DNA of 60,328 nt, taken from assembly GCA_964384025.1 (NCBI GenBank), contig CAYLJJ010000029.1, forward strand, positions 1 through 60,328, written 5' to 3'. This DNA is from an uncultured Nannocystaceae bacterium (lineage in GTDB: Bacteria; Myxococcota_A; Bradymonadia; UBA7976; UBA1532). The translations under genes and the position numbers were made by a program. Positions 676 through 58,782 of the stretch are shown here, piece by piece. Positions within the stretch are counted from its first letter, which is position 1, and every line of letters starts with the position of its first letter. Below the pieces are notes generated by a model that was not told the origin of the DNA, did no database searches, and saw only the letters and a list, made by a program, of their open reading frames with translations.

Positions 676-1191
676 ATGTCAGATCTCAGGATTCAACTCA
701 GCGACAACCAGCAACTCTCCAAACATCTCTTGATCCCCAAGATCATCTTTGGGGCCCTCATGGTTTCTATCCCCATCTATATGTTCTTAGGGCAACTCAT
801 CTGCTCTAGAGGAGAGGCTCCCAAGGCTCCTGAGCAGTTCCAACTCCTGATCTATATCTTCACTGGCCTCTCTGGCTTGCTCCTCTTGGGGATCCCTATC
901 ATCAGGAGATTTTTGATGCCTCCCAGGGCTACCGAACCTGCTCGACTGGGAGCAGAGGAGTCGATCTCTACAGAAGCCTTCCAACCGCTCTTCCAGAAAT
1001 TTTTTAGCGCTTCCATAATCTCCTGGGCGCTCAGCGAGAGCATCGCTATCTACGGTTTGGTGATCACCTTTCTCCTGCACGATGTGCAGTATATCGTTGG
1101 CTTTGGGCTCTTGGGGATGTTCTCAATGTCGCTCTATTTCCCTCGACTCTCTCTCTTTAAAGAGATCTTACGTGGAAGCCTGAGGCCCTGA
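676..1191 (+). CDS. hypothetical integral membrane protein (about 4 predicted TM helices)
   Basis: ORF of 171 aa with several long hydrophobic stretches, an AGGAG-like RBS (ctggaggagagATG) and high-GC codon usage. No recognisable family. Confidence 0.45.
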   Translation: MSDLRIQLSDNQQLSKHLLIPKIIFGALMVSIPIYMFLGQLICSRGEAPKAPEQFQLLIYIFTGLSGLLLLGIPIIRRFLMPPRATEPARLGAEESISTEAFQPLFQKFFSASIISWALSESIAIYGLVITFLLHDVQYIVGFGLLGMFSMSLYFPRLSLFKEILRGSLRP

Positions 1192-7704: not shown

Positions 7705-7933
7705 CTCCAGGGAGGGTATAACAAGGCCAAGGTTCCCTTGACTAGGAGGGCAGAGTGAAAGCGACCATCATCGACAGCCACCACTGGGAAACAGAACAGG
7801 CGGGGCTCGGCGCAAAGAGCCCTGACGGTTCAGCTGAGACATGTTCTAATATTAACACTCAAAATGCATTCTGTACCAACAATACAATTACTACCTACCA
7901 CATATTTTTTATCAATAAAACTTTTTTTTCGAG

Positions 7934-7957
7934 AAATTAGCAAAAAACTGCTAATTT
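7934..7957. promoter_or_regulatory. perfect palindrome AAATTAGCA-N6-TGCTAATTT in the AT-rich divergent region
   Basis: Seen directly. Preceded by a T8 run. Lies about 230 bp upstream of the minus-strand recD operon start and about 400 bp upstream of the MCP gene. Confidence 0.4.
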
Positions 7958-8358
7958 TGAGGATGCCATTTTGAAATAAAGAAATTCCATGGCTGAATTG
8001 GGGTTTACCAATATTTTTTATGTTTGTTTTGTGGGATGTGTTAGGCAACCAATATTAAAACGATTTTGAGTGCTTGCCCAAGAGCGCTTTGGAGCACCCC
8101 TACTTTTTGAGGCCCTCTAACCATCGCCCTTTGGAGATTGACCTATCCCGTTCAAGTTGTTCAGACATAGGACCGATCGTGAAGATCAAGTAAGTTTCGC
8201 GTTCACTTGCAGTGAATCCAAGCGAGGTGGTGATGTACAGCAGGGAGAGCGTAGAGACCCTTCAATAGCTCAGAAAGCAAAACGCTTGCATTTTCCAAAA
8301 AACAGGAAGGTGAGGCTTGATCGGGCATCAGAAGAGCGTCAGCTGTGAGAGGAGGCTT

Positions 8359-10368
8359 ATGAACGGCTCAGGTGGCTTCAGGCTCAGCGATATGAAGTTA
8401 AAGAGCAAACTCGTGCTGGCGGCAGCTTTTCCGCTGATCTGCGTTGTCGTTGTGGGGCTCACGGCGATGCAGAAGGTCAACTCACTCCATGAGACCACCT
8501 CCTGGGTTGAACACACACATGAGGCGATCCAGCTCGCCCAGGAGATTCAAGGGAGCGTCATCGATCTTGAAACCGGCCTGCGTGGCTACTTGATCTCCGG
8601 AAAAGAGGAGTTTCTTGAACCTTTCCACGCTGGCAAGAAGACGCTGAAGTTGGTGTACTCAAAGACACACAAGCATGTGGCGGACAACCCCGATCAGCTC
8701 AAGCGCATCTCGACAATTGAGGCTCTCGTTAACAGCTGGCTCAAGGAGGCGGCGGTGCCCATGATGACAAAGCGACAAGTCATCAATGAGGGCGCTGAGA
8801 TCCTCAAAAACTTCAAGGAGTTTCAGAGCCGCACTCTTGGCAAGGAGATCTTTGATGAGCTGCGGGTTGTGCTCTCAAGGCTCGAAGCCGCCCTGTCGGC
8901 GAGTGGCCACAAGAAGGCGCAGCCTATCCTGCTTCAAATCCTCCTCGATATGCTGAACATGGAGACGGGCCAGCGCGGTTTTCTGCTCAGCGGACTCGAC
9001 AGCTCCCTTGAACCTTTCAAGAGTGGGCAACTCGCCCTTGAGGGGCACATCAGAGCAATGCAGAGCTATGCGCGCTCAAATCGGCTCAGCGCGATGGAGC
9101 CCCTCATACAGCGCGTGGAGGCGTTGTCTGCTCGTTGGGTGTCTGAGGTCGCCAAGCCAGAGATCCAAGCGCGCTATGCGGTCAACGACATCAAAGTGAC
9201 CATAGATGATGTTGCAGCGGTGGTCGAGAGCGGTATCGGCAAGCGTTATATGGATCAGATTCGAGCTCAGATCGCTGGGTTTCAAGACGCTGAGCGAGCG
9301 CTCCTGAAGCCTCGCCGTGAGTTGGCCAACGCGGATGCTTCCATGGCCACCCAGGTTATCATCATCGGGAGTCTCCTGAGTGTGGTGCTCCTTCTCTTCG
9401 CTATGTTGCTCCTCAATCGCGCAGTGGCTACGCCCATCGCGAAGATCATAGAGCGGATGGAGGAGATCGCGGAGGGGGATCTCAGGCAGCGCGTCGAAGT
9501 TCATGGCGTTGATGAGATTGGGCAGTTCTCCTTATCTTTCAACGCCTTCGTAGAGAAGTTCCAGGTGGCCATGCAGGAGATCGCCAACAATGCGAGCCAG
9601 CTCGCGAGCACCTCTGCACAGATGATGGCGGTCAGCTCTTCCATGGCAAACAACGCTAACGAGACAATGATAGAGGTCAGGACCGCCAGTGACTCAGCTC
9701 AAGTCGTCAGTACGAGCGTACACTCGGTGGCAGGTGCGACCGAGGAGATGAGCGCGTCCATCAGCGAGATCGCGCAGCAAGCAACGCGGGGTGCTCAGAT
9801 CGCCAATGAAGCGACCCACGAGGCTGCGGATACGAATTCGATGGTAAAGCGGCTCGGAGAGGCCAGCCAGGAGATCAACGAGGTGACCCAACTTATCTCT
9901 CTGATCGCGGAGCAGACAAACTTGCTGGCCCTCAATGCCACGATCGAGGCGGCTCGCGCGGGAGATTCTGGGCGAGGGTTTGGGGTTGTCGCTAACGAGG
10001 TCAAGGCCCTGGCGGAGCAGACCCGGAAGGCGACAACGGAGATCGCCATGAAGGTGCAGGCGATTCAGACTGAGACAAACTCAGCTGTCCAGTCCATCAG
10101 CAACATCGCCAAGGTTGTTGAACATATCGATGAGATCTCCTCAATCATCGCTGGCGGCGTTGAGGAGCAGAAGGCCACGACCGCCGAGATCAACTCACGC
10201 CTGACAGATGCGGCGATGGCGAGCACAGAGATTTCAGAGCGCTTTGAGGGAGTCACCCGCGCTGCTGTAGGTACAAATGATGGCGCGGATGAATCAAAAG
10301 GAACCGCCTCAGAACTTTCAAAAATGGCCTCCGCTCTGGAGGCCCTACTGAGCCAGTTCAGGTATTAA
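8359..10368 (+). CDS. methyl-accepting chemotaxis protein with periplasmic CHASE3 sensor domain, HAMP and MCP signalling domain
   Basis: ORF 8317..10368. GAGAGGAGG precedes the ATG at 8359; alternative starts are 8317 and 8392. A TM segment is followed by a CHASE3-like region ([20 protein letters not shown] ... [11 protein letters not shown]) and a second TM. A HAMP domain follows, then the highly conserved MCP hairpin ([34 protein letters not shown]). Confidence 0.85.
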
Positions 10369-10805
10369 AGATTTCTTTAATTTATATGTTTTAGTTTTTA
10401 AAAAAGAGCGTTCAGATATTGTCAACTTAAGCAAACAGGTGCAATCGAAAGTGTGGATAATATCTTTGTTGCGTTCGAAAATCAACAATTATAGGTTAAG
10501 CGGGCGGGGTCTCTAGAATCGGCTTGGGACCGTAGATACAGCTTGATACTACTCGTTATATTCATCTGTACCAAACTGTGACTCCCTTTGTGACCACCAG
10601 CAAGGGCACTCCCGAGAAGATAATGCCAAAACATGCCGTATTTTTCGTAATGAGACACGAAAATATGCGGTTATAATCGTTGTATTTCATCTCTCATGAA
10701 GATGATCTCTGCCCCACCTTGAAATTGGAGTGGTGCTCATCAAATTGAGTCGTTTATCTCTCATCAAAACTTGGCAGTCCAGTCTGAATTCGTCACGATG
10801 GATCT

Positions 10806-11270
10806 ATGAATACACAATCACCTGAGACAACCGCCCGCGATGTGATGAATATCGCGCCAACCGTAACCCCTTCTACCTCGATCAAAGAGCTCGCGAAGAT
10901 GCTCCTCAACACAGGCCTTGATGGCGCGTGCGTAGTCGAGAAAGAGCGCCTCGTGGGTGTTGTGACTGCTATGGATCTCATCTTCCAGAAGAAACGGGTG
11001 CACCTGCCCTCGTTCTTCACCTTCCTCGACGCCCTCATCCCGCTTGAATCGCCCAGTCGGCTTGAGGAGGAGCTGCGGAAGCTTGCAGGCTCCACTGTCG
11101 CAGACATCATGACTACTTCCATCCGTACTGTCTCCAGCCACACTCCCCTCGATGAAGTCGCCCAGCTCATGGTGGAGCATCATCTGACGATCTTGCCCGT
11201 CATTGATGGCCCACGGCTGTTAGGGATGGTAGATAAGCCTACCATGATTCGTGTCGCTGTGGGTATTTGA
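10806..11270 (+). CDS. CBS-pair domain protein
   Basis: 154 aa with two CBS-like modules (VVTAMDLIF; HLTILPVIDGPRLLGMVD). It is flanked by AT-rich non-coding DNA. Confidence 0.65.
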   Translation: MNTQSPETTARDVMNIAPTVTPSTSIKELAKMLLNTGLDGACVVEKERLVGVVTAMDLIFQKKRVHLPSFFTFLDALIPLESPSRLEEELRKLAGSTVADIMTTSIRTVSSHTPLDEVAQLMVEHHLTILPVIDGPRLLGMVDKPTMIRVAVGI

Positions 11271-11674
11271 AGGTTTCTATTCTCTTTACCACTGGTTCTT
11301 TTGCTGTTGTCAATGAAATCGCACAGCGCCTACGTAAGAAAGAAAGTTGTCTTTTCGGTAGTACGGTGATACTAATTTTTTAAAATGCTCGCACTTGGTA
11401 TTTAACTTGAGAATTCTTCTAAATATCCATAAAAAACGAATACCATGAGGTGTTTATAAGCTTATAAAGATAAAATACTGGGATGTTCGTATTTGAAATC
11501 CAATTTTTTAGTTGAAAAAAGTATGTTACAACACAAAAAACAAGCATGCAAATGCAACCCATGTAATAAACAATTCTTTGAGAATCCCAACCGTGCATCT
11601 TTAAGGAGAGCTTACTTCGAGATCGGCGATATCGAAGAAATATCCTCTCGCCTTTTAAGGTTCTCTCCTGCCTG

Positions 11675-12388
11675 ATGAGATGCTTGATCCTCTTTCTGTT
11701 GATGACAAGCGGGCTGAGCGCCACGCCCAGACCAAACTCTGAGGAGCTGCTCTGCCCTCCAAAGAGACGACAGGTCTGGTTAGAAGGCTTTCAGTTGGCG
11801 GTAGATATCAAGCGGGCGCTGCTGGCCATCCGCCCCCTCAAAGGCTCCTCTCCGAAGGTAGAGCGCCTACAGTTTCAGCCTGGAGATCTTTTGGTAGCGC
11901 TGGCCCCGAGCGAGATCAACGCTGTCTTGGGGGCTTTTCATGAGCAGCGCTTGCGGATTAAACTCAGCCAAAAATCTCAACGATGTGGGGCTTTCCAAAC
12001 CCAGAAGATCAGCTTCTTCGACCTTCAGCTGCCCCTGACAGAGGTTGAACCTGAGTATCAAAGAAGGCGACCTGAGCTGCGTGTGCGGGTCGGAGGAGAT
12101 GGGCCTGGTGGAACGCAGCTTCGTCTTCGAGCAGAGCAGATCGCGAGGCGCTGCCTCCGCTATATGAACACCTCTCTGCTGCGCGGAGCGCTTATCGTCG
12201 AGCTGCGCAGCAGCCCTCTTGGGCTGCCTGAGCCCCCTCGGATGGTGGTCGATGGCCTTATCCGGCCTCTATTGAGCCGCTGCCTCCTCAATGAGCTTCG
12301 ACACAGCGAGCTGCTTTGGAGAGAGCTGCCTCCTGGTGCCCGTGATCTCCTCCCCTTTTATTTTGGGCCTCGTGTAGATTCTCCCTGA
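11675..12388 (+). CDS. hypothetical secreted protein
   Basis: 237-aa ORF with an N-terminal signal peptide (MRCLILFLLMTSGLSA). High-GC codon usage. No family recognised. Confidence 0.35.
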   Translation: MRCLILFLLMTSGLSATPRPNSEELLCPPKRRQVWLEGFQLAVDIKRALLAIRPLKGSSPKVERLQFQPGDLLVALAPSEINAVLGAFHEQRLRIKLSQKSQRCGAFQTQKISFFDLQLPLTEVEPEYQRRRPELRVRVGGDGPGGTQLRLRAEQIARRCLRYMNTSLLRGALIVELRSSPLGLPEPPRMVVDGLIRPLLSRCLLNELRHSELLWRELPPGARDLLPFYFGPRVDSP

Positions 12389-13056
12389 GTTGAGGGTAGA
12401 ATCCGTGCGTCTCCCTGCCAAAGAAGATCCCTAACTCGACCTGAGATCCAAGCTCGGGGAACCACCCCTGAGAGCTTATCCAAGGGGCAGCTGCGGCGAT
12501 TGTCACAGAGCAGGAAGAGATGCCCTGGAGGAATCTCCATCTCAGGCAGCTCCATCATCCAGGGCTTGGCACTGCCCAGATGATCGCCCAGGATATGGTG
12601 CTGTTGTTGAGGATTGAGTGGCTCAGTAAAGGATTGCTGACGAAGGGTTCGATCCGCCTCTCGATAAGCAAAGGGCTCCTCTACATGAACCTCCAAAGGC
12701 AGCTCATCCAAGACCAGGAGTCCATCAAGGGAGGCGATCTGCTGACCCTCCAAAGCCAAGACACGGCGAAGGACACGGCGCTCGCCCTGCTCAACGAGGA
12801 CAACATCTCCCTGGGTGATCTCGGGCTGAGCCTGAATCAGAAGGATGTCCCCCTCTAGGATATTGGGAGCCATAGTATTGCCGCGCACGATGACCAACTC
12901 AAAGAGAAAGATCCGCACCAACAGCAACAACAATAGAGGAGGGAGCAGCAGCCACTTGAGGAGACCTCTGCGCCTGGGTCGCCAAGCGGAAGATGAGGAG
13001 AGTGAGGATCTCCTCTTGCCAGAGAGCAATCGGCGCCTGGGTCGTCGGCGCTTCAT
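12358..13056 (-). CDS. S26 family signal peptidase I-like protein (non-canonical Thr/Arg at catalytic positions)
   Basis: An Arg-rich N-terminus and a TM helix are followed by VRGNTMAPNILEGDILLI, which aligns to the SGSMxPTL box with Thr at the nucleophile position. VLRRVLALEG aligns to the YxKRxxGLPGD box, with Arg for Lys. The C-terminal CDNRRSCPLD corresponds to the GDNRxxSxDSR box. Confidence 0.55.
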   Translation of the reverse strand: MKRRRPRRRLLSGKRRSSLSSSSAWRPRRRGLLKWLLLPPLLLLLLVRIFLFELVIVRGNTMAPNILEGDILLIQAQPEITQGDVVLVEQGERRVLRRVLALEGQQIASLDGLLVLDELPLEVHVEEPFAYREADRTLRQQSFTEPLNPQQQHHILGDHLGSAKPWMMELPEMEIPPGHLFLLCDNRRSCPLDKLSGVVPRAWISGRVRDLLWQGDARILPSTQGESTRGPK

Positions 13057-13075
13057 TCAGATGGGGAGGAGGCCA

Positions 13076-13576
13076 TCAGAGCCGCTCAAGCTCCTGAGCG
13101 ATACGATCCAGAACACCGTTGACAAACTTGCTGCTCTTGTCGGTCCCATAGCGTTTGGCGATCTCGATCGCTTCGTTGAGGACCGCAGGCCCTGGCGTTC
13201 CCCCCTCAAAGGCCAACTCAAAGACCGCTAGACGCAGGATGTTGCGATCCACCCGGTTCATCCGCAGCACTTTCCAGTTGTGAGAGAAGCGCTGGATCAG
13301 CTCGTCGATGTTCTGGCGGTTGTCCATCACCCCTTGAACAAGCAGCTCGACAAAGGGCCAGTGCCGCTCCTCAGAGAGGAGGTGCTGAAGATGCTTGAGT
13401 TGGCGTGGGGAGAGCTGATTGAAGAGGCTCTCCAAAAACTCAGGATCGTCCCGGAAGGACTCAGCGAAAGAGTTGAGCGCCTCTGATGAGTCCTGGAATC
13501 TGCGAAGGTCCAGAGTAAAGAGGACCAGAAAAGCCCACTCCCGAGCAACATGACGACCTGAGATGGGGGTGCTCAC
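13076..13576 (-). CDS. nusB: transcription antitermination factor NusB
   Basis: 166 aa. [13 protein letters not shown] and the canonical position immediately after ribH (4-bp overlap). Confidence 0.85.
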
Positions 13577-14049
13577 GAGGCCCCCATCTTCTTGAGGAGA
13601 TCGGCCATCTCAATGGCAGAGAGGGCTGCCTCGGCGCCCTTGTTTCCAGCCTTGGTGCCCGCCCGCTCGATCGCCTGCTCGATGCTGTCGGTGGTGAGGA
13701 CGCCAAAGGTGATGGGGATCCCCATCTGTAGAGAGACCTGAGCCAAGCCCTTGCTGCTCTCAGCCGCGACATAATCAAAGTGGGGTGTGCTCCCCCGGAT
13801 GATCGCGCCCAGGGCGATGATGGCGTCTACCTTACCGCTGGTAGCCACCCGCTTAGCCAATAGAGGCAACTCCCAGGCGCCAGGGACCTTGAAGACCTGA
13901 ACATCTTCAGCGCGGACACCGTGACGCCGCAATGTGTCCATAGCGCCTTCTAAGAGACGATCGACGATAAAGTGGTTAAAGCGCGTGACCAGGATGCCAA
14001 AGCGAAGCCCCTGGGCGATAAGTTGGCCTTCTAGAGTGCGTGGGTTCAT
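13573..14049 (-). CDS. ribH: 6,7-dimethyl-8-ribityllumazine synthase
   Basis: 158 aa. [21 protein letters not shown] ... VPGAWELP ... [16 protein letters not shown], hallmark lumazine synthase motifs. Confidence 0.9.
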
Positions 14050-14070
14050 GACTCTCCAATCTCTTGATCT

Positions 14071-15201
14071 TTAAGCTTTGCTTGGGCGCGGTGGGATAGA
14101 GATCTGCTCGACGATCTCCAGACCATAGCCCTCCAAGCCTTTGATGCGCGCCTCGCTACAGCTTAACAAGCGGATCTTTTTGACCCCCTGATCCAGGAGA
14201 ATCTGCGCTCCAATTCCAAACTCTCTTAGGGTCGCGATCGGCTCAGGTCCCCCCCGAAGCTCCTGAGAGACACGCGGGGCGGGTTTCTGGAGGTAGACCA
14301 GGACCCCTTGACCCTCCGCCTCCATACAGCGGAGGGCATACTCCAGACGCCAACGTGAGTCATAGGGAGCACAGCGAAAGACATCGCCCAACAAGCTCTC
14401 TTGATGAACACGACCCAGGACAGGCTGTCTTGGATCAGGTGTCCCTTTGACGATGGCGAGGTGCTCCAGGGCGCCCACCTTACTGCGGTAGCTGAGAACC
14501 TTAAACTCGCCTATCTCCGCGACCTCCAAGCGCTGCTCGGCGATGCGCTTGACCAAGCGCTCCTTACAGAGGCGATAGCTGATGATGTCTGCCACCGAGA
14601 GCATCAAGAGGCCTCGCTCACGAGCAAAAACCTCCAGCTGAGGTCGACGAGACATGCTGCCATCCTCGTTCATGATCTCGCAGATCACCCCAGCGGGCTC
14701 TAGGCCCGCGAGGCGAGCCAGATCGACAGAGCCCTCTGTCTGCCCTGTGCGCACCAACACCCCTCCCGCCTTGGCGCGTAGGGGGAAGATATGCCCTGGG
14801 CGCGAGAGCTGCTCAGGGCGAGCTTGGGGAGCGACCGCCGTGCGGATGGTGTGAGCTCGGTCTGCTGCGCTGATCCCCGTAGTTACTCCTTCGGCGGCCT
14901 CTATGCTCACCGTAAAAGCGGTCCCAAACTTACTGTTGTTCTCGTTCACCATCAGCGGGAGGTTCAGCTGGTCACAGCGAGCAGGGGTCAGGGAGAGGCA
15001 GATCAGACCACGGCCCTCTCGGGCCATAAAGTTGATGCTCTGGGCGGTGACCTTCTCGGCGGCCATCACCAGATCACCTTCATTCTCTCGATCCTCATCA
15101 TCGACGAGGATCACCATCTCACCCTGGCGGATCAGCTGGATGGCTTGCTCGACACGCTCCAGGCTCTCAGACTCTCGATCATTCATCTCTTTATAACTCA
15201 A
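14071..15201 (-). CDS. ribB: 3,4-dihydroxy-2-butanone-4-phosphate synthase fused to a degenerate GTP cyclohydrolase II-like domain (RibBX-type)
   Basis: The N-terminal half is a DHBP synthase ([20 protein letters not shown]). The C-terminal half aligns to RibA but lacks the Zn-binding Cys motif (ECLTGD ... RCDCG is replaced by ESLLGD ... RCAPYDSRW) and the NNPKK region. Confidence 0.8.
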
Positions 15202-15842
15202 TCAGTAAAGCCGCAGCGGGCCAGAAGCTCTAGATCGATGCTCCCCTGGGCACGGCTCCCAAGGAGGCGCTCTACATACTTTCCCAGGAGATCCACCTCT
15301 AGGTTGACCTGTGAACCAGGGCGTTTTTTATGAAGCTGAACAACACCTTGGCTATGGGGGATAAGGACTACGCTAAAGCGCCCAGGCTTGAGATCATTGA
15401 TGGTCAGGCTGATCCCATCTATGGCGATAGAACCCTTCTCAACCAGGTAGCGCTCCAGCCCTGAGGGCAGAGAGAACCAGAGGCGCAGGGCCTCGCCCAG
15501 AGGCTCACTGCGCTCCAGACGACCTAGGCCATCGATATGACCGGCGACGAGATGTCCTCCCAGACGATCTCCCAGCTTCAACGCGCGCTCTAGATGAAGC
15601 AGCTCTCCTGGACGGCGCTGTCCCAGGGTGCTGCGGCTCAGGCTCTCTACAGAGGCCTCCACCCTGAACTCTCGCTCTGTAAAGGCGATGACGCTCAAAC
15701 AGGCACCATCTACAGCTACGCTGTCCCCCAGGCGCATCCCCTCCAGCAGCTCAGCAGGCGCGCTGATCTCAAGCTGAAGTCCAGGCCCTCTCCGCTGTAG
15801 GCCCTTAAGCTGGCCGCTGGCCTCGACGAGACCTGTAAACAT
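15198..15842 (-). CDS. ribE: riboflavin synthase (alpha subunit)
   Basis: Starts MFTGLVE (canonical MFTGI(V)E). 214 aa with two lumazine-binding repeats. Confidence 0.85.
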   Translation of the reverse strand: MFTGLVEASGQLKGLQRRGPGLQLEISAPAELLEGMRLGDSVAVDGACLSVIAFTEREFRVEASVESLSRSTLGQRRPGELLHLERALKLGDRLGGHLVAGHIDGLGRLERSEPLGEALRLWFSLPSGLERYLVEKGSIAIDGISLTINDLKPGRFSVVLIPHSQGVVQLHKKRPGSQVNLEVDLLGKYVERLLGSRAQGSIDLELLARCGFTD

Positions 15843-15859
15843 AGAGGGCTCCTTAAATA

Positions 15860-16924
15860 TCAGCGGCGGGCAGGGTACAAGATCTGGCCTCGAAAGCGCA
15901 GATCCCTCCCTAGAATTTTGATCTCAGGTTGATCGATACGCCAAGCAGCAGAGACGCTGGGGACTGAGGGCAGGTTCAAGACCGGGCGACCTCGCCCCAG
16001 CCAGAGCGGCGCGACATAGAAAAGAGCCTCATCTGCCAAGCCCTCTTTAAGGAGGCTGCCGTGGAGATGCCCTCCCCCCTCCACCAGGAGAGAGAGGACC
16101 CCTCGACGGGCCAGGGCCTCAAGCATCGGCTTCAAAGCCAGCCCCTCTGGCGCCAACGGCAGGGCCTCCAACTCAGCGCCTCGCTCTTCAAGAGCAGAGA
16201 TCCGCTCAGGGGCAACCTCAGGTCCATGGAAAATGAGCGCTCCGGGTCGCAGGAGGGCCGCATCTGGGGGAAGCCTGAGGAGCCTGTCCAGGAGGACTGG
16301 ACGGGGGTCTTCCCCCTCTGCCAAACGCACGTTCAGGCGGGGGTTATCGGCCAGCGCAGTTCCTGAAGCGACCAGGACAGCATCTACCTGAGCGCGCAGC
16401 GCATGCACCTCTCGCCGTGCCTCCTCTCCGGTGATCCATTTGGAGTCCCCGCTCTGGGTGGCGATGCGACCATCTAAGCTGACGGCAGCCTTGATGATCA
16501 CCCAGGGGCGACCCTCCAAGAAGCGGAAGAAGGGGGCGAGCTGCAGGGCACAGGCCTCAGCTTCACAGCCCTGTTTGACCTCAATGCCAGCAGCGCGGAG
16601 GGCCTGAACCCCGCCCCCATCGACCAGAGGGTTGGGATCTTGAAGCCCTACGAAGACACGCTTGATCCCCGCTGTGATGATCGCCTCGGTGCAGGGAGGG
16701 GTTCGCCCTTGATGGCAACAGGGCTCGAGGGTGACATAGAGATCAGCCCCTCGGGCGGCGGCGCCCGCCTCTCTGAGGGCTAAGATCTCCGCGTGAGCTT
16801 CTCCAGGAGGTTGAGTCACACCCCTCCCCAGGATCTCTCCCTCCCGCGCGATGACACAGCCCACCATCGGATTGGGGCTGACTCGATGCCGGGCCTCTGC
16901 GACCAAGCGGAGGGCCTCTCTCAT
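15860..16924 (-). CDS. ribD: bifunctional diaminohydroxyphosphoribosylaminopyrimidine deaminase / 5-amino-6-(5-phosphoribosylamino)uracil reductase
   Basis: 354 aa. HAEILALREAG ... LYVTLEPCCHQGRTPPC (CMP/dCMP deaminase Zn motif) followed by a RibD C-terminal reductase domain. Confidence 0.9.
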   Translation of the reverse strand: MREALRLVAEARHRVSPNPMVGCVIAREGEILGRGVTQPPGEAHAEILALREAGAAARGADLYVTLEPCCHQGRTPPCTEAIITAGIKRVFVGLQDPNPLVDGGGVQALRAAGIEVKQGCEAEACALQLAPFFRFLEGRPWVIIKAAVSLDGRIATQSGDSKWITGEEARREVHALRAQVDAVLVASGTALADNPRLNVRLAEGEDPRPVLLDRLLRLPPDAALLRPGALIFHGPEVAPERISALEERGAELEALPLAPEGLALKPMLEALARRGVLSLLVEGGGHLHGSLLKEGLADEALFYVAPLWLGRGRPVLNLPSVPSVSAAWRIDQPEIKILGRDLRFRGQILYPARR

Positions 16925-16940
16925 GAACAGGGGAAAGATC

Positions 16941-17394
16941 TTAGGGCTCCAGGGCGCTGATCTTCTCTAAGCGCCCTTGGTGACGGCCCCCTTCAAAGCG
17001 GGCATTTAAAAAAGCCTCCACTGCTGCGAAGAGAGGCAGCTCACCCAGCAGGCGGCCTCCCAGGCAGAGGATATTGGCATCGTTATGCTGTCGAGCTAGA
17101 CGAGCGCTCAGCTCATCGTGAGCCAGGGCTGCGCGAACCCCTGAGATCTTGTTGGCGGCGATCGACATCCCGATGCCAGTACCACAGAGCAGGATCCCAA
17201 GCTCTGCCTCTCCAGCGACCACCGCGTGGCCCAGCTTGGCGGCGAAGTCGGGATAGTCGCAGCGCGCCGAAGAGTAAGGCCCCAGATCGAGGAGCTTCAT
17301 CTGGGGTCGCACCATGCTCAGTTGAGAGAGCAACGCGGCCTTGGCCTCAAAGGCCGCATGATCGGAGGCGATCAGGATTTTCAAGCTTATTGCT
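16941..17394 (-). CDS. rpiB: ribose-5-phosphate isomerase B (RpiB/LacAB family)
   Basis: LKILIASDHAAFEAK ... LCGTGIGMSIAANK ... The likely start is the TTG at 17394, preceded by GAAGGAG. The ORF-track start at 17474 overlaps the fabF 3' end and is probably an upstream extension. Confidence 0.75.
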
Positions 17395-17454
17395 CCTTCA
17401 TGGCGCTGAGTCAGGGCCCGTCCGCAAATGGCTTCGGCAGAGGCTTTGCCTCCA

Positions 17455-18702
17455 TCATTTAGGCCATCGCCCAAAGAGGAGGCTCACATTACTGCCCCCA
17501 AAACCAAAGCTGTTGCTCATGGCGGCCTGAAAGCGAGCCTCGCGGGCCTCATTGGGCACATAGTCCAGATCACAATCAGGATCTGGGGTCTTGTAGTTGA
17601 TCGTGGGGGGGATCGCGCTATGTTTTAGGGAGAGCACTGTAATAGCGGCCTCAACCGCTCCTGCAGCGCCCAACATATGCCCCGTCATCGACTTACTGCT
17701 GCTCACCCAGAGCGTATCAGCGTGCGCTCCAAAAACCCCTCGGATGGCGCGGGTCTCTGCGAGATCATTAAGGGGGGTGGAGGTGCCGTGGGCGTTGATA
17801 TAGCCCACCGCCTCTGGAGGCAGCTCAGCGTCTTGCAGCGCGAGGCTCATGGCGCGACGAGCGCCTCGACCAGAGGGCTCGGGCTGGGTCATATGGAAGG
17901 CGTCTGAAGCTTGGCCATAACCCAAAAGCTCCGCTAGGATGGGGGCTCCTCGACGCTGGGCAAACTCCAACTCCTCTAAGACCAGGATCGCGCTCCCCTC
18001 AGCGCAGACAAAGCCATCTCGATCAGCATCAAAGGGGCGGCAAGCACGCTCAGGCTCCTCGTTGCGAGTGGAGAGGGCTCGTAGGGCGGCAAAGCCGGCG
18101 ATGCCCAGAGGGGTGATGGTAGCTTCACAGCCCCCCGCCAACATCAGATCAACCTCTCCACGCAGAATTTGATGGGCTGCTTCTCCTAAGCTATGCGCTC
18201 CGGTAGAGCAAGCGCTGACGCTGCCCAGGTTGGGTCCCTGAGCGCCAAAGCGGATCGAAACTTGTCCAGGGGCGAGGTTGGCGATGAGCCGAGGAATCAT
18301 AAAGGGGCTGATGCGGCGAGGTCCTCTCTTACGGAGCACCTCAGCGGCGATCTCGATCGTCTCTAAGCCGCAGAGACCCACCCCAATATGAACACCTGCG
18401 CGCTCTCCCAAGGGTGCTGAGAGTCCAGCAGACTCCACCGCTTCACAGGCCGCCGCCATGGCGAACTGAATAAAACGATCCATCCTGCGCAGTTCTCTTT
18501 TGGGGATCCAACGCAGAGGATCAAAGCCTTTGACCTCTCCGGCGATGCGCACAGAAAAGGCGCTGGAGTCAAAGCGGCTGATGGGAGCGATCCCGCCTTG
18601 AGCAGCGAGGAGCGAGGACCAAGTGGCAGAGACACCGACACCTATGGGGGTCACAAGGCCAACGCCGGTGACCACCACCCGCCGCTCTGAAGCTCTCATC
18701 AA
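17455..18702 (-). CDS. fabF: 3-oxoacyl-[acyl-carrier-protein] synthase II
   Basis: 415 aa. [15 protein letters not shown]. Active-site Cys context (SACSTGAH), [11 protein letters not shown] and GHMLGAAG motifs. Confidence 0.9.
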
Positions 18703-23964: not shown

Positions 23965-23974
23965 ACAGATAAAT

Positions 23975-24008
23975 ATCGATATATGATTATCGATGTTCTC
24001 TTTTTTTC
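23975..24008 (+). terminator. inverted repeat ATCGATA-N6-TATCGAT followed by a CTCTTTTTTTCC tract, 10 bp after the secA stop
   Basis: Seen directly. The stem is AT-rich and weak, but it is followed by a T7 run. It could be the secA terminator and/or an operator for the MVP-like gene. Confidence 0.35.
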
Positions 24009-24166
24009 CCTCCAGATGATCCCCAAAACGCTCCCAAGCCTACAAGGCACAGCCTCTGCACAGGGGCCGCTCACTTCAAAGAACCTCAGCTTCAGGCTTT
24101 ACCCCAGGTCGCTAGAGGAGGAGACTCTCAGCGACCCTTTCAGTGGGAGACACCAAGGGAGAGAGA

Positions 24167-26680
24167 ATGAGTCGAGATCGTATCGAGCGAGATGATTACG
24201 CCGCGCGCAGAGGACGAACCACCAGCAATGAGTTGGTTCTGAGCGTTGGAGAGTATGCCTTCACTCAGGACACCACCTCCGGGATCATCAAGGTCCACAC
24301 AGGGCCTACGGTGGTCAACGTCACCGGCCAGGAGTTCTCTGTCACTTACGACCTGGAGAGCAGGCATTTTAAGCGCATCTCTCTAGAAGAGGCGCGGCAG
24401 AAGAGCCCGCTGGCACCCCAAGGACACTACTGCATCCTCTGGAACCCCGCTCTGGATGAGCGCCACCCTACAGAGCGAGATAAGCTGGTCGCCCCCGACC
24501 TGCTCATGGGGCAGCGGGTTAATATCCCCGGTCCCTGCACCTTCTCGCTCTGGCCCCAACAGAGCGCTCAGGTCTTAGAAGGGCACCATCTGCGCTCCAA
24601 TCAGTACCTCCTGGTGCGGGTCTATGATGAGGAGCAGGCCAACAAGAATTGGGGGACAGCGGTGGTCAAGCCTGCTCAGGGAGAGGCGGAGGAGGAGCTG
24701 ACCGTCCCCGCCCCTGAGGCGCTCAATGTAGGGCGGCTGATCATCATCCGAGGGGATTCAGTCTCCTTTTATATTCCTCCCACCGGGGTAGAAGTGGTCC
24801 CCGATGATGAGAAGAACTATGTACGTGAGGCCCTCACCCTAGAGCGCCTGGAGTACGCCATTCTCATTGATGAGAATGGCAACAAGCGCTATGAGCGTGG
24901 TCCTCAGGTGGTATTTCCCCAGCCCACGGAGCACTTCTTTGAGGAGCAGACCAAAAAGGGGGGGCGTATTCGGGCCTTTAAGCCGATCGAGCTCAACGAG
25001 ATCCAGGGCCTTCACATTAAGGTGATCGCCGACTATGAGGAGCTGGGGGTTCAGTATAAGGAGGGCAAGGAGCTGTTTATCACAGGGAAGGATATCCAGA
25101 TCTACTTCCCCCGTCAGGAACACTCCCTGGTCTCCTACGATGGTAAGTCCAAGCACTTCGCTACGGCGGTGCCGGCTGGAGAGGCCCGCTATGTGATGAA
25201 TCGCAAGACGGGGCAGATCCGCATGGTGAAGGGACCCACCATGCTCCTCCCTGATCCTCGAGATGAGGTGATCGTTCGTCGGGTGCTCTCTGATAAGGAG
25301 TGCGCGCTCTGGTATCCAGGGAATCAAGAAGCCCAGACCTATAATCAGCACCTCCGCAGCCTCTCTCGCCGCGCTCCCACTACCCGGCGGGGTGTGGTCA
25401 GTGAGGGAGAGGTGGGTCGCAGCCGCAAGCTCAAGGGCTATCGTGGGCAGAGGACAGAGAGCAGCAACGTCAGTTCTGACAGCCACGCTGTCGTCGCCGA
25501 TGAGTTCTCGCGGGGCTCAACTTACACTGAGCCCCGCACCGTCACCCTAGACACTAAGTTTGCCGGGGTCCCCACCCTGGACATCTGGACGGGCTACGCG
25601 GTGATGCTTATCTCCCGAACGGGAGAGCGCAAAGTAGAGATGGGCCCGGTCAGTCTCCTCCTGGGCTACGACGAGAGCCTTGAGGTGCTGCAGATGAGCA
25701 CTCAGACACCCAAGAACAAAGAGGAGCTGATCCGCACTGTCTACCTGAGGGTCAAGAACAACCAGGTCAGCGATGAGGTGGAGGCGGAGACCCGCGATCA
25801 TGTCAAGGTCTCAGTGATCCTCTCTCTGCGGGTCAACTTCGAGGGAGAGCCCAAGCTCTGGTTTGAGGTGGAGAACTACGTCCAGTTCCTCTGTGATCAT
25901 GTGCGCAGCCTGCTTAAGGCTCATATCCGCCAGGTCCCTGTGGAGGAGTTCTACGCCCGCACCGAGGACTTTGTCCGCGATGTGATCCTGGGAAAGAAGA
26001 TCGACGATCGGCGAGAGGGTCGCTTCTTCTCCGAGAATGGCATGCGCATCAAGGATGTGGAGGTCCTTCAGGTCAAACTGGGAGACAGCCGTATCGCTCA
26101 GCTCCTTAATGAGGCTCAACACAGCGCGGTGGAGTCCAACATCGCTCTGGCCAAGGCGGAGAAGGAGCTTGAGGTCGGTAAGCGGATGGAGAGCATCCAG
26201 CAAGAGAAGCTGGAGGCGGAGGCGGAGACCGCTCGCCACAAAGCAAATCTCAGCGTAAACGCGATCAAGCGGGATCTAGATGTTCGCTTGAGCCGGGTGA
26301 CCGCCACTGTTCAGGAGCAGCAGGAGCGCATCGAGGCTCAAAAGGCCACCGACATGGTCGCCAACCTCGCTCAGGAGGCTGCCCTAGAGCGAGAACGCTT
26401 GGAGCAGAAACAGGAGTTGGATCTAGAGAAGGAGCGGCAAGGTCTTCATCTGGACAACCTCAACGCAGAGACTCAGGCGATGGTAGCGCGCTTTGGTGCT
26501 GCGCAGGAGGGCTTCTCTGAGGCCCTGCTCTCTCTGAGCCAGAAGGAGACCTTGGTGAAGGTGGCCGAGGCGCTCTCCGTGCAGAAGATGCTGGGAGGGG
26601 ACAGCTTCGTTGAGGTGGTTCAGAAGATCTTTGAGAACAGTCCTCTGGCGGGGCTCTTGAACGCTGATAAGGAGGAGTGA
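24167..26680 (+). CDS. major vault protein (MVP)-like protein: N-terminal vault repeats, SPFH-like shoulder and C-terminal coiled-coil cap-helix
   Basis: ORF-track start is a GTG at 24143; an ATG at 24167 is preceded by AAGGGAGAG. The translation (837 aa) aligns by eye along its whole length with eukaryotic MVP. Examples are [23 protein letters not shown] ~ [36 protein letters not shown] ~ PRHYCTVANPV / [26 protein letters not shown] ~ AIPLDENEGIYV; and [27 protein letters not shown] ~ [25 protein letters not shown]. Further matches are [19 protein letters not shown] ~ ETADHARLQLQLAYNWHFE and a Glu/Ala/Arg-rich coiled-coil tail ~ cap-helix. Confidence 0.75.
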   Translation: [837 protein letters not shown]

Positions 26681-27721
26681 TCAGCTCTCTCTGGGAGTGA
26701 TCTCTTTTTTCAATATCGGAGCGGCCTTGAGCGCAGCCTTGCCCTCTTTTACATAGACTCGAAAGTGAACATCCGAGCAGGCGAAGCGATCGATGAGCGT
26801 GCGGCGGGTGCGCAAAAGACGCTCCCGAAAGCGAAGGTAGTCCAGAGCCGCTGTAGCCTCACCACAGCGAGACTTGGCCTCTCGAAAATCTCCAAAAATC
26901 GCCTCCAGGCTGGACTCTAACTCGGGAGACTGCTTGGGACTCCTCTCCTCCAGTTTTAGGGGTTTGTTGGGGAGTAGCTCCTCTGAAGGGCTCTTTTCTC
27001 TGCTTGATCTCTGTTCCAATAAAACCCCTAAGAGCCAAGCTCCAAGGATAACGGTCAATAGGCTCATGGTTCTACGAAGCTCTGAGCGGGCCGCCGCGAT
27101 GATTTTCATCAAGCTCAACCGAGACTTCTCCGGGTATCTCAGCGCCAGTCCCAGACCAGGCAGCTCAGGAGAGGATCTCCAACCGCTGCCTTTGGAAGGG
27201 CTCTTCCCTCCTGCCAGGAGGCTGATCCCCGGATATAGATCTCCAGGGAGTGGGACAAGCTGCAACAGTACACCGGAGCCAACTGGAACTCTCAACAACC
27301 AGTGATGCCTTGAGCCTCCACCTGGATATTTCAAGAGATGACGGCTCTCCGGCTTCTCCAAGGCCAGGAGCTGAGGCTCTGTTGCCCAGGGTTGAGCTGC
27401 AGGGGAATGAACCAAGACTTCTGCCTCTTGATCCAGGAGAAGCCAAGCGGGGTTGGGCTCCAAAAGCTCAAGAGCGTCCAGGCTGGGGGCTGTCTCTCCT
27501 ACCTCCAGAGCCAAAAGCAGCGCGGGATCCAAGGCCAAGGTTTTCAGGACACGCTCTTGCTCCTTCAAGCCCGTTTCAATCTGTTTCAGCAGCGCCTCCG
27601 CCTCAAGTTCCAGGCGCTGCCGCGCTGGCTCCGCTTGATCCTTCAGCATAGAGTAGGTCCCGCTCAGACCCAGGGCCAAGAGCAGGAGCAGTGATAGATA
27701 CCAGCTTCGCGCCCACCACAT
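26681..27721 (-). CDS. hypothetical membrane-anchored protein (N-terminal TM, coiled-coil-rich)
   Basis: 346-aa ORF convergent with the MVP-like gene. MWWARSWYLSLLLLLALGLSG TM/signal anchor. Downstream of the GT2 gene on the same strand. Confidence 0.35.
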   Translation of the reverse strand: MWWARSWYLSLLLLLALGLSGTYSMLKDQAEPARQRLELEAEALLKQIETGLKEQERVLKTLALDPALLLALEVGETAPSLDALELLEPNPAWLLLDQEAEVLVHSPAAQPWATEPQLLALEKPESRHLLKYPGGGSRHHWLLRVPVGSGVLLQLVPLPGDLYPGISLLAGGKSPSKGSGWRSSPELPGLGLALRYPEKSRLSLMKIIAAARSELRRTMSLLTVILGAWLLGVLLEQRSSREKSPSEELLPNKPLKLEERSPKQSPELESSLEAIFGDFREAKSRCGEATAALDYLRFRERLLRTRRTLIDRFACSDVHFRVYVKEGKAALKAAPILKKEITPRES

Positions 27722-33941: not shown

Positions 33942-35564
33942 ATGAACCCCAAACAGGTCCTAAAACTCGAACTCTCCTTTGAACAGGAGAGCGTCTTACC
34001 TGGAGTGGAGAGTGAGATCCATCTCGTGGCTCGTGTCGATCCTCTTCAAGGAGGGATCGAGGCGGAGCGCCCATCGATCTCTGTGGTCTTCGTACTGGAT
34101 GTCTCTGGTTCAATGACAGGCCCCCCCCTGGCCCATGTCATCGAGGCCAGCTGCTCGCTCATCGATCGCCTAGAAGAAGCAGATCAGGTCGCCGTAGTAG
34201 CTTTCGCTGACAACGCTACTGAGGTAGCTGGACTTGGTCCCATGACCAAGGTGAACAAGGCCCGCGTCAAGCGGCGACTGCGACGCCTGGAGGCGGGCGG
34301 CTGCACCTCCATCGAAGCGGGTATGAGGATCGCTAAACATCTCCTTCCAGAGCGCCATCTTCATGAGCGACAACTGATGATCCTGCTGAGCGACGGCCAA
34401 CCCAACCGAGGGATCAGCGATCCTCCCGGATTAGCGCGGCTCGCTGAAAGCTTCCGACCCGATATCGCCATCTCTACCCTGGGCTTTGGCCCCCACCACG
34501 ATGAAGATGTACTCAGCGCCATCTCCGACGCGGGCTCTGGAGTCTACTCCTATATCGCCAACCCCTTGGAGTGCAGTTTTGAGTTGGGCCGCGCCCTGGG
34601 CGCTCAGGGTGACATCGTCGCTGATGCCCTGGAGATTCTGCTTCGACCTGAAGAGGGGGTTGAGATCCTCCAGATCTTAAGCCATCAGCGCAGTCGATTT
34701 GGTGCTGAGGGCCTGCTCATCCCTCTCAGCGATGCTTTAGAGGGCCGCCCTCAGTTTCTGGTCGCCAAGTTGAGCCTCTCAGCTTCTCAACCTCCTGGAA
34801 GTTGGAGGGGGGTCTTAGAGGTTTGCCTGCGCTACCGCGTCGCTGGAATGAAGGAACAGATGAGCCTCAGAGAGAGGCTCTCTATTCCCATTGAGGAGGG
34901 AACGCCCAAGCGCAGAGAGGAGATCTGGGCTCGAGTGCTCCTCGCTCGGGGAGAGGAGGCGCGGAGGGAAGCTCGACTTATGGCAGATCGAGGGGCCTTT
35001 GAAGGCGCCGCTGCGGTTCTTCGAAAGATCATCAAAGAGATGGAGGCGACCCCAGGTTATGAAGAGGGGGATGGCTCTGATCTCTCTGAGGCCTTGGAGC
35101 AGCTCTTGGATGAGGTAATGGCCTATGAGCGCAAACCCAAGATAGAGGAGTACAAAACCTTTCGCCGTATGAGTATGGGTATGGATCTTCAAGCGGGAGG
35201 TACTCATGCCAGCGATTGGCGACCTCAGAGCAGCAAGTCGATAGCGATCCAAGATTTGATGTTAAACGCGCTTCCAGAGGCATATCTCCTGGGAAGGACA
35301 GGCTTCAACGCGGGCCAGCGTTATCCACTCAAAGGAGAGATCAGCCTGGGGCGAACCTCAGCCAATGACATTATGATTGGCTCTCCTCGGGTAAGCAGGC
35401 GTCATGCTCGTATCCTAGGGCGTGAGGGACGCTATATGATCAGCGATCTGGGCAGTACCAATCCCACCCTGATCAATGGACAGATTCTCCATCGACCTCA
35501 TCTACTTCGCTCAGGAGATGAGATCTGCTTAGGGGAGGAGATCTTCATCTATATCGAAGATTAA
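33942..35564 (+). CDS. VWA domain protein with C-terminal FHA domain
   Basis: 540 aa; GAGGGAG RBS. VFVLDVSGSMTG (MIDAS DxSxS) ... LLSDGQPN (vWA). C-terminal GRTSANDIMIGSPRVSRRHARI ... ISDLGSTNPTLINGQ (FHA signature G-R ... S ... H ... N-G). Confidence 0.75.
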   Translation: MNPKQVLKLELSFEQESVLPGVESEIHLVARVDPLQGGIEAERPSISVVFVLDVSGSMTGPPLAHVIEASCSLIDRLEEADQVAVVAFADNATEVAGLGPMTKVNKARVKRRLRRLEAGGCTSIEAGMRIAKHLLPERHLHERQLMILLSDGQPNRGISDPPGLARLAESFRPDIAISTLGFGPHHDEDVLSAISDAGSGVYSYIANPLECSFELGRALGAQGDIVADALEILLRPEEGVEILQILSHQRSRFGAEGLLIPLSDALEGRPQFLVAKLSLSASQPPGSWRGVLEVCLRYRVAGMKEQMSLRERLSIPIEEGTPKRREEIWARVLLARGEEARREARLMADRGAFEGAAAVLRKIIKEMEATPGYEEGDGSDLSEALEQLLDEVMAYERKPKIEEYKTFRRMSMGMDLQAGGTHASDWRPQSSKSIAIQDLMLNALPEAYLLGRTGFNAGQRYPLKGEISLGRTSANDIMIGSPRVSRRHARILGREGRYMISDLGSTNPTLINGQILHRPHLLRSGDEICLGEEIFIYIED

Positions 35565-58760: not shown

Positions 58761-58782
58761 AGAGAATTTTATTCTCTATTTG
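58761..58782 (+). terminator. hairpin AGAGAAT-TTT-ATTCTCT followed by a TATTT stretch, downstream of the island operon
   Basis: Perfect 7-bp inverted repeat with a 3-nt loop, seen directly. The T-tract after it is weak. Confidence 0.25.

Follow-up and report, generated by a model that had tools for sequence, protein, structure and literature searches.

The question of what the vault does has stood open since 1986, and TEP1, PARP4 and vault RNA are not universal even among eukaryotic vaults. Major vault protein (MVP) homologues were published from myxobacteria, Bacteroidota, Chloroflexota and cyanobacteria in 2013 and 2019 (Daly et al. 2013, PMC3762200; Sokolskyi 2019, bioRxiv 10.1101/872010) and from Asgard archaea in 2026 (PMC12962969). 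The earlier bacterial entries are from Corallococcus coralloides (H8MNI3), Plesiocystis pacifica (A6FXM1 and A6FXE2), Enhygromyxa salina, Microscilla, Saprospira and Herpetosiphon, among others, and in the literature no bacterial MVP has apparently been shown to form particles. The association of rtcB with an MVP gene was already reported by Burroughs and Aravind (2016), as cited in bioRxiv 10.64898/2026.06.17.732918. In human vaults, a loop with the pattern S-x-G-[KR]-P-K contacts NAD+/ADP-ribose, and the residues of this pocket are listed in PMC12280208.

We found a gene for an MVP homologue at positions 24167–26680 (plus strand) of a myxococcotal DNA stretch of 60,328 nucleotides, which was analysed as a whole and is called the window here. 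We are practically certain that its product is a genuine homologue of eukaryotic MVP over almost its whole length and a member of the bacterial family described below. The reading frame runs without interruption from ATG 24167 to TGA 26678–26680 and encodes 837 residues. A Shine-Dalgarno-like AAGGGAGAG (24155–24163, plus strand), read from the sequence, precedes this ATG and provides a GGGAG-type ribosome-binding site 5–10 nt upstream of the start codon. The JGI gene call differs, starting at TTG 24233 and giving 815 aa; the ATG start agrees with the homologues, which have about ten residues ahead of a conserved DLVL motif. The gene is present in a single copy in the window, its GC content (0.585) is close to that of its neighbours, and its GC and GC3 resemble those of secA, which ends at 23964, 202 bp upstream. 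Folding of this 202-nt spacer gave a terminator-like hairpin with a T-run just 3' of secA (23972–24007, plus strand; a 10-bp stem followed by CUCUUUUUUU; z -2.5), an indication that transcription of the MVP gene starts from a separate promoter. Another terminator-like hairpin with a T-run, from a consensus scan, lies right after the MVP stop codon (26684–26708, plus strand), and is weak evidence because such sites in the region are no commoner than in shuffled sequence. With terminator-like hairpins on both sides, the MVP gene is a stand-alone transcription unit without a conserved partner.

Pfam matched MVP_shoulder (PF11978) to residues 531–640 (profile positions 2–118 of 118, E 9.9e-22, 77.6 bits, cut-off 25) and Vault_3 (PF17795) to residues 485–527 (E 9.4e-8, 32.5 bits against a cut-off of 28.8); each of the two was found in all 56 relatives searched. 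The N-terminal 480 residues gave no Pfam match, and Vault, Vault_2 and Vault_4 are absent from the Pfam results for the window protein. By Pfam alone, the N-terminal vault repeats claimed in an earlier note on this DNA would have to be given up, but profile and structure comparisons overturn this conclusion. In hhalign, a profile of 88 bacterial relatives aligned collinearly with human MVP (99.9%, E 2.6e-32, 660 columns), with window residues 25–793 (the start also mapped at 22) on human residues 7–798, and the N-terminal half alone gave E 2.6e-11. In the N-terminal-half comparison, residues 100–220 showed no detectable sequence similarity to MVP, and an hhalign self-comparison of this half returned nothing. 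Against the MVP chains of the PDB, the relatives' profile gave E 3e-29 (window 473–801 on MVP 465–825). This similarity is far beyond chance and upholds the full-length homology proposed in the earlier note. Identity to human MVP is about 23% in local alignments, BLASTP gave an E-value of only 6e-11, and single-sequence phmmer against the PDB found no MVP. The phmmer matches of residues 368–461 to the phage tube proteins XkdM and CD1364 (marginal E 0.004–0.006) were judged spurious, since the matched segment is a disordered low-confidence loop. The human MVP reference was made by joining residues 1–549, a 100% match to PDB chain 11dr_A, to residues 465–825 from the PDB alignment. A search for eukaryotic MVPs with the human C-terminal fragment gave only fragments of at most 628 aa, which were left out of the comparisons.

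All motifs on which the earlier note had relied occur in the window protein, and most of them keep the register of human MVP. HYCILWNP (87–94) aligns with human HYCTVANP (57–64), and two 19-residue motifs are also in register, one of them facing human ETADHARLQLQLAYNWHFE. On the other hand, 'AI.IDEN' is out of register and reflects a resemblance between repeats: window residues 231–237 align with R6 of MVP, not with the AIPLDEN of R7/R8.

The domain order of the window protein is the same as that of eukaryotic MVP: staves, an R8-like insert, an R9-like repeat, shoulder, cap helix and C-terminal tail (all coordinates on the plus strand). An AF2 model built on an alignment of 88 diverse sequences reached a pLDDT of 82.7 overall and above 90 over residues 20–420 and 470–640; with 32 close homologues, the pLDDT of the N-terminal half was below 50. 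A charged N-terminal tail (residues 1–21; 24167–24229), predicted to be disordered (pLDDT below 50 at 1–18) and lying outside the hhalign alignment that starts at 22, is followed by tandem antiparallel β-sheet modules (residues 22–372; 24230–25282) corresponding to MVP R1 up to the β core of R8. These modules number about six to seven, and the equivalent of R2–R5 takes 135 aa against 216 aa in human MVP. Residues 373–469 (25283–25573) comprise a helical insert (376–423) and a basic disordered loop (425–466), as assigned from AF2 secondary structure and pLDDT; they correspond to the helical/disordered part of MVP R8 and are about 57 aa longer, the hhalign map placing R8 at window residues 332–449. 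An R9-like repeat (residues 470–530; 25574–25756), the Vault_3 region of Pfam, carries a 'keyhole loop', S511-x-x-x-P515-K516, and leads into the shoulder domain with its SPFH/Band-7 fold (residues 531–640; 25757–26086). The AF2 model then shows a single continuous cap helix of 137 residues (641–777; 26087–26497) with a high content of Ala, Glu, Leu and Gln; its counterpart in the alignment is the cap helix of MVP (647–802). The C-terminal tail (residues 778–837; 26498–26677; pLDDT below 50) is a possible equivalent of the cap ring. It is conserved in the family: among close relatives, the positions of F783-S-E-A-L...K798...Q806...G811 range from conserved to almost unchanging. The Pfam shoulder match and the modelled helix bear out the SPFH-like shoulder and the Glu/Ala-rich cap-helix tail described previously.

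A superposition of the predicted monomer on rat MVP had also been suggested. In Foldseek, the model matched rabbit, human and rat vault chains at 5.5e-33 to 5e-25 (TM up to 0.47–0.52), the R1–R7 crystals at 2.4e-15, and SPFH cages at 8e-7 at best. An N-terminal array of five-stranded antiparallel β-sheet vault repeats is present. According to the model, the repeats likely number about seven to eight, compared with nine in vertebrate MVP, with R2–R5 compressed. The wall is not a one-to-one copy of R1–R9, as seen from the missing Pfam Vault, Vault_2 and Vault_4 matches and from the lack of MVP similarity at residues 100–220.

S511 and K516 of the keyhole loop do not vary among the 88 relatives, and the counterpart of K516 in the human NAD+/ADP-ribose pocket is K506. 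The window protein has T514 where the family has K or R and Q513 where the family has G, and the pocket residues R507, H509, R511, W545 and K573, which make up most of the NAD+ pocket, are not conserved. In sequence, the keyhole loop is partly conserved; among the contributions of the window is the observation that this loop, known from the human nucleotide pocket, is retained with its Lys.

The bacterial family comprises 600 clusters at 50% identity (E ≤ 1e-30). We confirmed 537 loci among GTDB species genomes; almost all belong to Myxococcota, often with two per genome, and JGI annotates the close relatives as 'major vault protein'. Together with the publications since 2013, these numbers contradict the statement that bacterial copies are at most sporadic: the window protein is an uncharacterised member of a large myxobacterial family already in the literature, not a rare transfer. 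It falls in an early-branching marine clade together with the loci L006 and L007. Conservation, assessed over 88–142 relatives, is strongest in the β repeats and the shoulder, where numerous Gly, Pro and aromatic positions do not vary. Judged by its SecA, the host is an uncultured member of Myxococcota, and a single MAG (GCA_018813065.1) supplies both the nearest SecA (78%) and the nearest MVP (70%); thus, the MVP gene looks vertically inherited within this mainly myxobacterial family.

Gene neighbours were surveyed at 82 related loci. Once shadow ORFs lying across the MVP gene, which at first made up most of the result, were filtered out, no gene was common to more than 14 of the 82 loci, and no family-wide partner was found among them. 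In the closest genome, secA and the MVP gene lie on separate contigs with different contexts. The secA neighbourhood emphasised in the earlier note does exist, but these two observations indicate that the adjacency is incidental. Similarly, the convergent ORF (346 aa, two hydrophobic segments) abuts the MVP stop codon as described, but is not a conserved partner. A vWA-FHA protein (33942–35564) was considered as a vPARP-like partner and rejected, being 7 kb away and not conserved beside homologues. The impression that no vPARP or TEP1 partner is visible agrees with our scans: no TROVE or PARP domain was detected in nine flanking and nine more distant ORFs of the window, nor in the Pfam calls of the surrounding 22 kb. 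The window gave no Rfam match at the gathering threshold, vault RNA included, and no tRNA-like gene, a permissive search giving one sub-threshold chance match.

In 10 of the 82 loci, all from one clade, rtcR is found with rtcB–MVP; the MVP gene is co-oriented 4–100 bp behind rtcB, and a divergent rtcR is adjacent. The window copy lies outside this clade. A tblastn search with RtcB from locus L028 found nothing in the 60-kb window, and neither an Rfam RNA nor a gene for RtcB, RtcR, a kinase, TROVE or PARP lies near the window copy. The ten rtcB–MVP loci gave no Rfam match at the gathering threshold, and four genes downstream of rtcB–MVP in L086 had no Pfam match even at E 0.1. An apparently conserved '386-aa' ORF was discarded as a low-complexity antisense shadow of rtcR.

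Our main reading is that the window protein is an MVP homologue that assembles into a cage, for which homology and assembly together have a probability of roughly 0.6. Cage assembly taken by itself, argued from analogy, is placed a little lower, just above even odds. Monomers would pack side by side, like those of MVP and all structurally characterised SPFH-clan proteins, with the cap helices joined in a helical barrel, the shoulders closing the dome and the repeats making up the wall. The hollow shell so formed would be vault-like, soluble and cytoplasmic, with a wall shorter than that of the eukaryotic vault because of its about seven to eight repeats instead of nine. Such a shell might sequester RNA, RNP or nucleotide-related cargo under stress, an idea that comes from the rtcR/rtcB-linked paralogue clade and the partly conserved S-x-G-[KR]-P-K loop. 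We consider it tentatively, with the odds clearly against it, that the family builds vault-like closed cytoplasmic shells of about seven to eight repeats, with no need of TEP1 or PARP4, in an ancestral RNA-damage or nucleotide-stress role. For the window copy, an RNA or nucleotide-stress role drawn by analogy is slightly more doubtful still; an RNA-repair function would be an extrapolation here, since no rtcB or rtcR is nearby and the copy is outside the RtcB-linked clade.

Instead of a free vault of two halves, the protein might form a membrane-apposed SPFH dome or scaffold of the HflK/C, flotillin, stomatin or prohibitin type, that is, a single cup on the inner membrane organising or protecting membrane proteins. 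We regard this as unlikely: no 19-residue segment has a Kyte–Doolittle mean above 1.6, neither a TM segment nor a hairpin anchor is present, and the anchor position of SPFH proteins is taken by about 450 aa of vault repeats. Moreover, Foldseek puts MVP structures about 25 orders of magnitude ahead of SPFH structures, and no NfeD or FtsH-type partner is found nearby. Alternatively, the MVP fold might be kept but yield no closed shell; the protein would then serve as an extended scaffold, coiled-coil or fibrous, similar to the TolA-like role put forward by earlier authors for bacterial MVP-like proteins. According to bioRxiv 10.1101/872010, the long helix with its many Ala and Glu residues is close to TolA domain II in composition, and the repeat number differs from that of MVP; on the other hand, the strongest conservation lies in the β repeats and shoulder, which fits a precisely packed lattice and not a spacer, no TolA match was obtained in Pfam or the PDB, and the coiled-coil similarity is compositional. 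This possibility is more improbable than the membrane-apposed dome.

MVP is best known from eukaryotes, and cyanobacterial MVPs about 54% identical to those of eukaryotes were interpreted as horizontally transferred (PMC3762200), so that a recent eukaryote-to-bacterium transfer or eukaryotic contamination could be imagined. It is effectively refuted for the window gene by the low identity to human MVP and the poor single-sequence matches given above, by the housekeeping setting on a 70-kb contig (secA, plsX, fabF, rib genes and a sigma factor), by nearest relatives that are hundreds of Myxococcota proteins, by the nearest genome shared between SecA and MVP, by the lack of introns and by the host-like GC. 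The earlier note was therefore right to set contamination aside, while its proposal to date the transfer loses its object, there being no sign of a eukaryotic transfer. Equally far-fetched is the idea that the gene is carried by a prophage or mobile element, in the manner of the phage-borne MVP homologues described for gut Caudoviricetes (bioRxiv 10.1101/2023.11.10.566534). The weak phmmer match of residues 368–461 to XkdM (E 0.004) would speak for it, but is marginal and within the disordered loop; no phage or mobility genes flank the gene among its housekeeping neighbours, and its GC is not atypical.

If the family does build closed shells with an ancestral RNA-damage or nucleotide-stress role, Myxococcota would be a tractable prokaryotic system for vault function and a candidate for the lineage from which the eukaryotic vault came, or for its sister. 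A bacterial family with MVP architecture, hundreds of diverged members, simple genetics and, in one clade, an RNA-repair operon link would be a good route to vault function, an opportunity that comes from the already published family and not from the window locus. The window contributes a clean, well-supported example from early-branching marine Myxococcota, with evidence for a vertically inherited, stand-alone gene, and a confident model pointing to a shortened repeat wall.

Among known systems, SPFH/Band-7 proteins (HflK/C, QmcA, flotillin, stomatin, prohibitin and erlin) share with the window protein an SPFH fold followed by a long helix, a module with which they build closed oligomeric cages. 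Unlike them, the window protein has no membrane anchor, its SPFH domain is preceded by about 500 aa of vault repeats, and its Band_7 score is below the Pfam cut-off. The RtcB-associated MVP homologues belong to the same family (52–55% identity to the window protein) but to another clade, and the window copy has neither rtcB nor rtcR within 60 kb. The earlier myxobacterial homologues come from the same phylum and have a reported identity to eukaryotic MVP of about 25%, the same level; the earlier bacterial homologues have the shoulder and Vault_3 as in the window protein, with Band_7 in some, and are likewise uncharacterised experimentally. From taxonomy and domain signature, we infer that the window protein belongs to the same subfamily as these named entries. 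The Asgard homologues (Nat Microbiol 2026, PMC12962969), set beside it by description only, are also prokaryotic and known from prediction only, with a shoulder, a cap helix and a repeat number below nine; they belong to another domain of life, and five repeats are reported for them versus about seven to eight here. Compared with eukaryotic MVP (rat, human and rabbit; PDB 4V60, 4HL8, 6BP7, 9BW5 and 9Z4W), the window protein differs in its low identity (about 23%), its compressed R2–R5 (135 versus 216 aa), its R8 insert longer by about 57 aa, most of its NAD+/ADP-ribose pocket residues and the absence of TEP1, PARP4 and vault RNA from the window. Nevertheless, the two have a collinear domain order, similar lengths (837 versus 861–893 aa), cap helices of about 140–155 residues and the keyhole Lys (K516 and human K506) in common, and eukaryotic MVP is by a wide margin the best structural and profile match of the window protein.

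The product of the ORF at 24167-26680 (+) is a homologue of the eukaryotic major vault protein (MVP), and we consider this identification robust. BLASTP of the window protein against human MVP reached just 6e-11, with a collinear alignment across residues 224-803, and phmmer with this single sequence did not find MVP in the PDB. A profile built from 32 relatives did retrieve MVP chains (human, rat and rabbit) at about 3e-29, with residues 473-801 paired to 465-825. The human sequence, checked beforehand against PDB chain 11dr_A, was then compared by hhalign with a profile of 88 diverse relatives. This gave a probability of 99.9% and an E-value of 2.6e-32 over 660 aligned columns, collinear between family-profile columns 25-793 (window residues 22-779 on a re-run) and MVP 7-798. 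We compared the N-terminal half separately, to keep the SPFH-like shoulder from driving the score. Residues 1-466 matched MVP 1-456 (97.3%, E 2.6e-11), residues 1-110 matched vault repeat R1 (E 1.4e-5) and residues 200-400 matched R6-R8 (E 6.5e-9), while residues 100-220 gave no match to MVP in this test. The homology asserted in the earlier note is thus borne out. The Pfam search it proposed gave support only in part: MVP_shoulder matched residues 531-640 over the whole profile length (9.9e-22) and Vault_3 matched residues 485-527 (9.4e-8), with Band_7 slightly under threshold, but nothing in Pfam matched residues 1-480. Among 56 relatives, the shoulder and Vault_3 are detected in every one, the classical Vault repeat in four (best 4.7e-5) and Vault_2 in one.

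The single MVP gene in the window (+) codes for 837 aa and is unbroken between its ATG at 24167 and the TGA at 26678-26680. A Shine-Dalgarno-like sequence read on the + strand, AAGGGAGAG, lies 4-12 nt 5' of the ATG. The JGI gene call for an identical database protein (P0001) starts at a TTG 22 codons further in, giving 815 aa; the ATG start is reasonable because about 10 residues precede the conserved DLVL motif in relatives. The secA gene ends at 23964, and the 202-nt spacer opens with a 10-bp hairpin and then a T-run, which looks like a secA terminator. A second terminator-like hairpin is found 3' of the MVP stop codon. With such hairpins on both sides, the MVP gene looks like a separate transcription unit. 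Its GC (0.585) and GC3 (0.73) are close to the secA values, and no TM-like segment was found in the protein.

Bacterial MVP homologues have been published since 2013, when Daly et al. described them in Corallococcus, Plesiocystis (two copies), Microscilla, Saprospira, Flexibacter and Herpetosiphon, with about 25% identity to eukaryotic MVP, as well as cyanobacterial copies resembling HGT (PMC3762200). Homologues from Myxococcales, Cytophagales and Oscillatoriales were analysed by Sokolskyi in 2019 (bioRxiv 10.1101/872010), and phage copies were reported in a 2023 preprint (bioRxiv 10.1101/2023.11.10.566534). At E<=1e-3, our word-indexed protein search returned 5180 proteins, of which the best 120 are all full length (91-99% coverage) with 50-71% identity; the named ones come from Myxococcota MAGs, and many are called 'major vault protein' by JGI. 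An exhaustive search of 50%-identity representatives found 1185, 882 and 600 clusters at E<=1e-3, 1e-10 and 1e-30, respectively, and a GTDB scan (one genome per species) confirmed 537 MVP loci, with two copies in several genomes. The best 80 of the 537 are nearly all from Kofleriaceae, Haliangiales, Nannocystaceae, Polyangia, Sandaracinaceae and unclassified Myxococcota. These numbers do not support the view that bacterial copies are at most sporadic.

The earlier note also envisaged a transfer that a phylogeny could date. The window SecA shows 78% identity to that of a Myxococcota MAG and 69-73% to those of Myxococcales and Bradymonadia MAGs. One MAG, GCA_018813065.1, provides both the best SecA match and the best MVP match (70%), on separate contigs, which argues for vertical inheritance of the MVP gene; a datable transfer is not supported. 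A 50%-identical homologue lies on a contig labelled Candidatus Achromatium palustre (LFCU01000241.1, locus L021) and assigned to a gammaproteobacterium, whereas the hits around it in our search are myxobacterial; the cause is lateral transfer or else faulty binning. Another homologue outside the window (P0045, 1095 aa, on 8 contigs) scores 27.7 bits, above the cut-off of 22, for an N-terminal WGR domain (residues 106-172). It may be a real fusion or an artefact of merging in the gene call; PARP enzymes are known to carry WGR domains, which bind nucleic acids.

The secA neighbourhood, to which the earlier note drew attention, appears to carry no meaning. On this 70-kb JGI metagenome contig, the genes run in the order rib genes, rpiB, fabF, acpP, plsX, rpmF, yceD, secA, MVP, a convergent 346-aa ORF, a GT2 glycosyltransferase and a sigma factor. 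The 346-aa ORF (26681-27721, -) has N-terminal and internal hydrophobic segments and no Pfam match, its stop directly abuts the MVP stop codon, and it was not found beside MVP in other genomes. We compared the flanking ORFs of 82 MVP loci all-against-all after removing shadow ORFs, and no neighbour was conserved in more than 14; none of the window neighbours occurs at any of the four homologous loci inspected with gene calls. The adjacency of secA and of the convergent membrane ORF is therefore incidental. A gene 7 kb downstream (33942-35564, +) encodes a 540-aa protein that combines vWA at its N-terminus with FHA at its C-terminus. PARP4 and TEP1-like proteins also contain vWA domains, but the gene is not conserved in the vicinity of MVP homologues. 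Positions 54001-60328 have a GC of 0.40, against 0.56 elsewhere in the window, and a strongly positive GC skew. An assembly junction or a foreign island could account for this segment, whose genes include ORFs lacking any Pfam match and one (56210-58429) for a 739-aa protein that carries six metal-binding repeats of the MopE type.

Two recurrent linkages were found among the relatives. In 10 of the 82 loci (L016 (=L086), L026, L028, L030, L035, L038, L042, L046, L047 and L061), from Kofleriaceae and Haliangiales MAGs, rtcB lies 4-100 bp upstream of MVP on the same strand, alongside a divergent RtcR-domain sigma-54 activator. This operon link is already published and is credited to Burroughs and Aravind 2016 by a preprint (bioRxiv 10.64898/2026.06.17.732918). 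In L086, rtcR (7020-8621, -), rtcB (9367-9966, +) and MVP (10001-12505, +) are followed by four co-oriented uncharacterised genes (12629-18096, +) without Pfam matches, which might encode cargo or minor components. In seven other loci (L025 (=L087), L044, L053, L063, L068, L081 and L082), MVP is followed after 9-90 bp by a co-oriented Ser/Thr kinase gene. Neighbour joining placed the RtcB-linked copies together in one clade and most of the kinase-linked ones in a second, suggesting that two paralogues within one genome are regulated or used differently. The window MVP belongs to neither: its clade, shared with L006 and L007, branches off early. Homologues of the linked rtcB and kinase genes are absent from the window, and no Rfam RNA was found in the window or the rtcB loci.

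The keyhole loop of human MVP (R504, K506, R507, H509, R511) touches NAD+/ADP-ribose (PMC12280208; bioRxiv 10.64898/2026.05.01.722283); of these residues, K506 contacts the diphosphate. In the hhalign alignment, this loop corresponds to a family motif, S-x-G-[KR]-P-K, in which S511 and K516 are invariant among 88 relatives and P515 is present in 87. The window version is S-T-Q-T-P-K (residues 511-516, window 25697-25714), with Q513 and T514. The remaining residues of the human pocket are unconserved, and the loop is a lead towards nucleotide binding rather than evidence for it.

AF2 modelled the N-terminal half poorly when given a shallow alignment. A second model, from 88 sequences, has a mean pLDDT of 82.7, exceeding 90 at residues 20-420 and 470-640. 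It predicts an all-beta N-terminal region, a helical insert (376-423), a disordered loop (425-466), a beta module (470-524), an alpha/beta shoulder and a single continuous helix (641-777). Residues 368-461 (window 25268-25549), in this insert and loop, weakly matched two phage tail-tube proteins, XkdM and CD1364, by phmmer (E 0.004-0.006), probably by chance. The most likely mechanism, judged from the architecture and the behaviour of the clan, would be self-assembly into a vault-like shell, in which the repeats would pack laterally with the SPFH shoulders and a cap-helix barrel. To our knowledge, the monomers of every solved member of the clan pack side by side. Our literature search found no paper on particles built by a bacterial MVP. 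The value lies mainly in the family, a large and untried prokaryotic handle on the vault problem. Domain boundaries of rat and human MVP, reportedly those of Tanaka et al. 2009, were transferred to the window protein through the hhalign alignment. This places R1 at residues 22-85, R6 at 221-272, R7 at 273-331, R8 at 332-449, R9 at 450-530, the shoulder at 531-639 and the cap helix at 640-779. R2-R5, which span 216 aa in MVP, correspond to 135 aa here (86-220) with about half of the columns aligned, and the repeat number is likely about seven to eight. The window protein and eukaryotic MVP are similar in total length, which masks a shortened wall and an enlarged R8 insert in the former.
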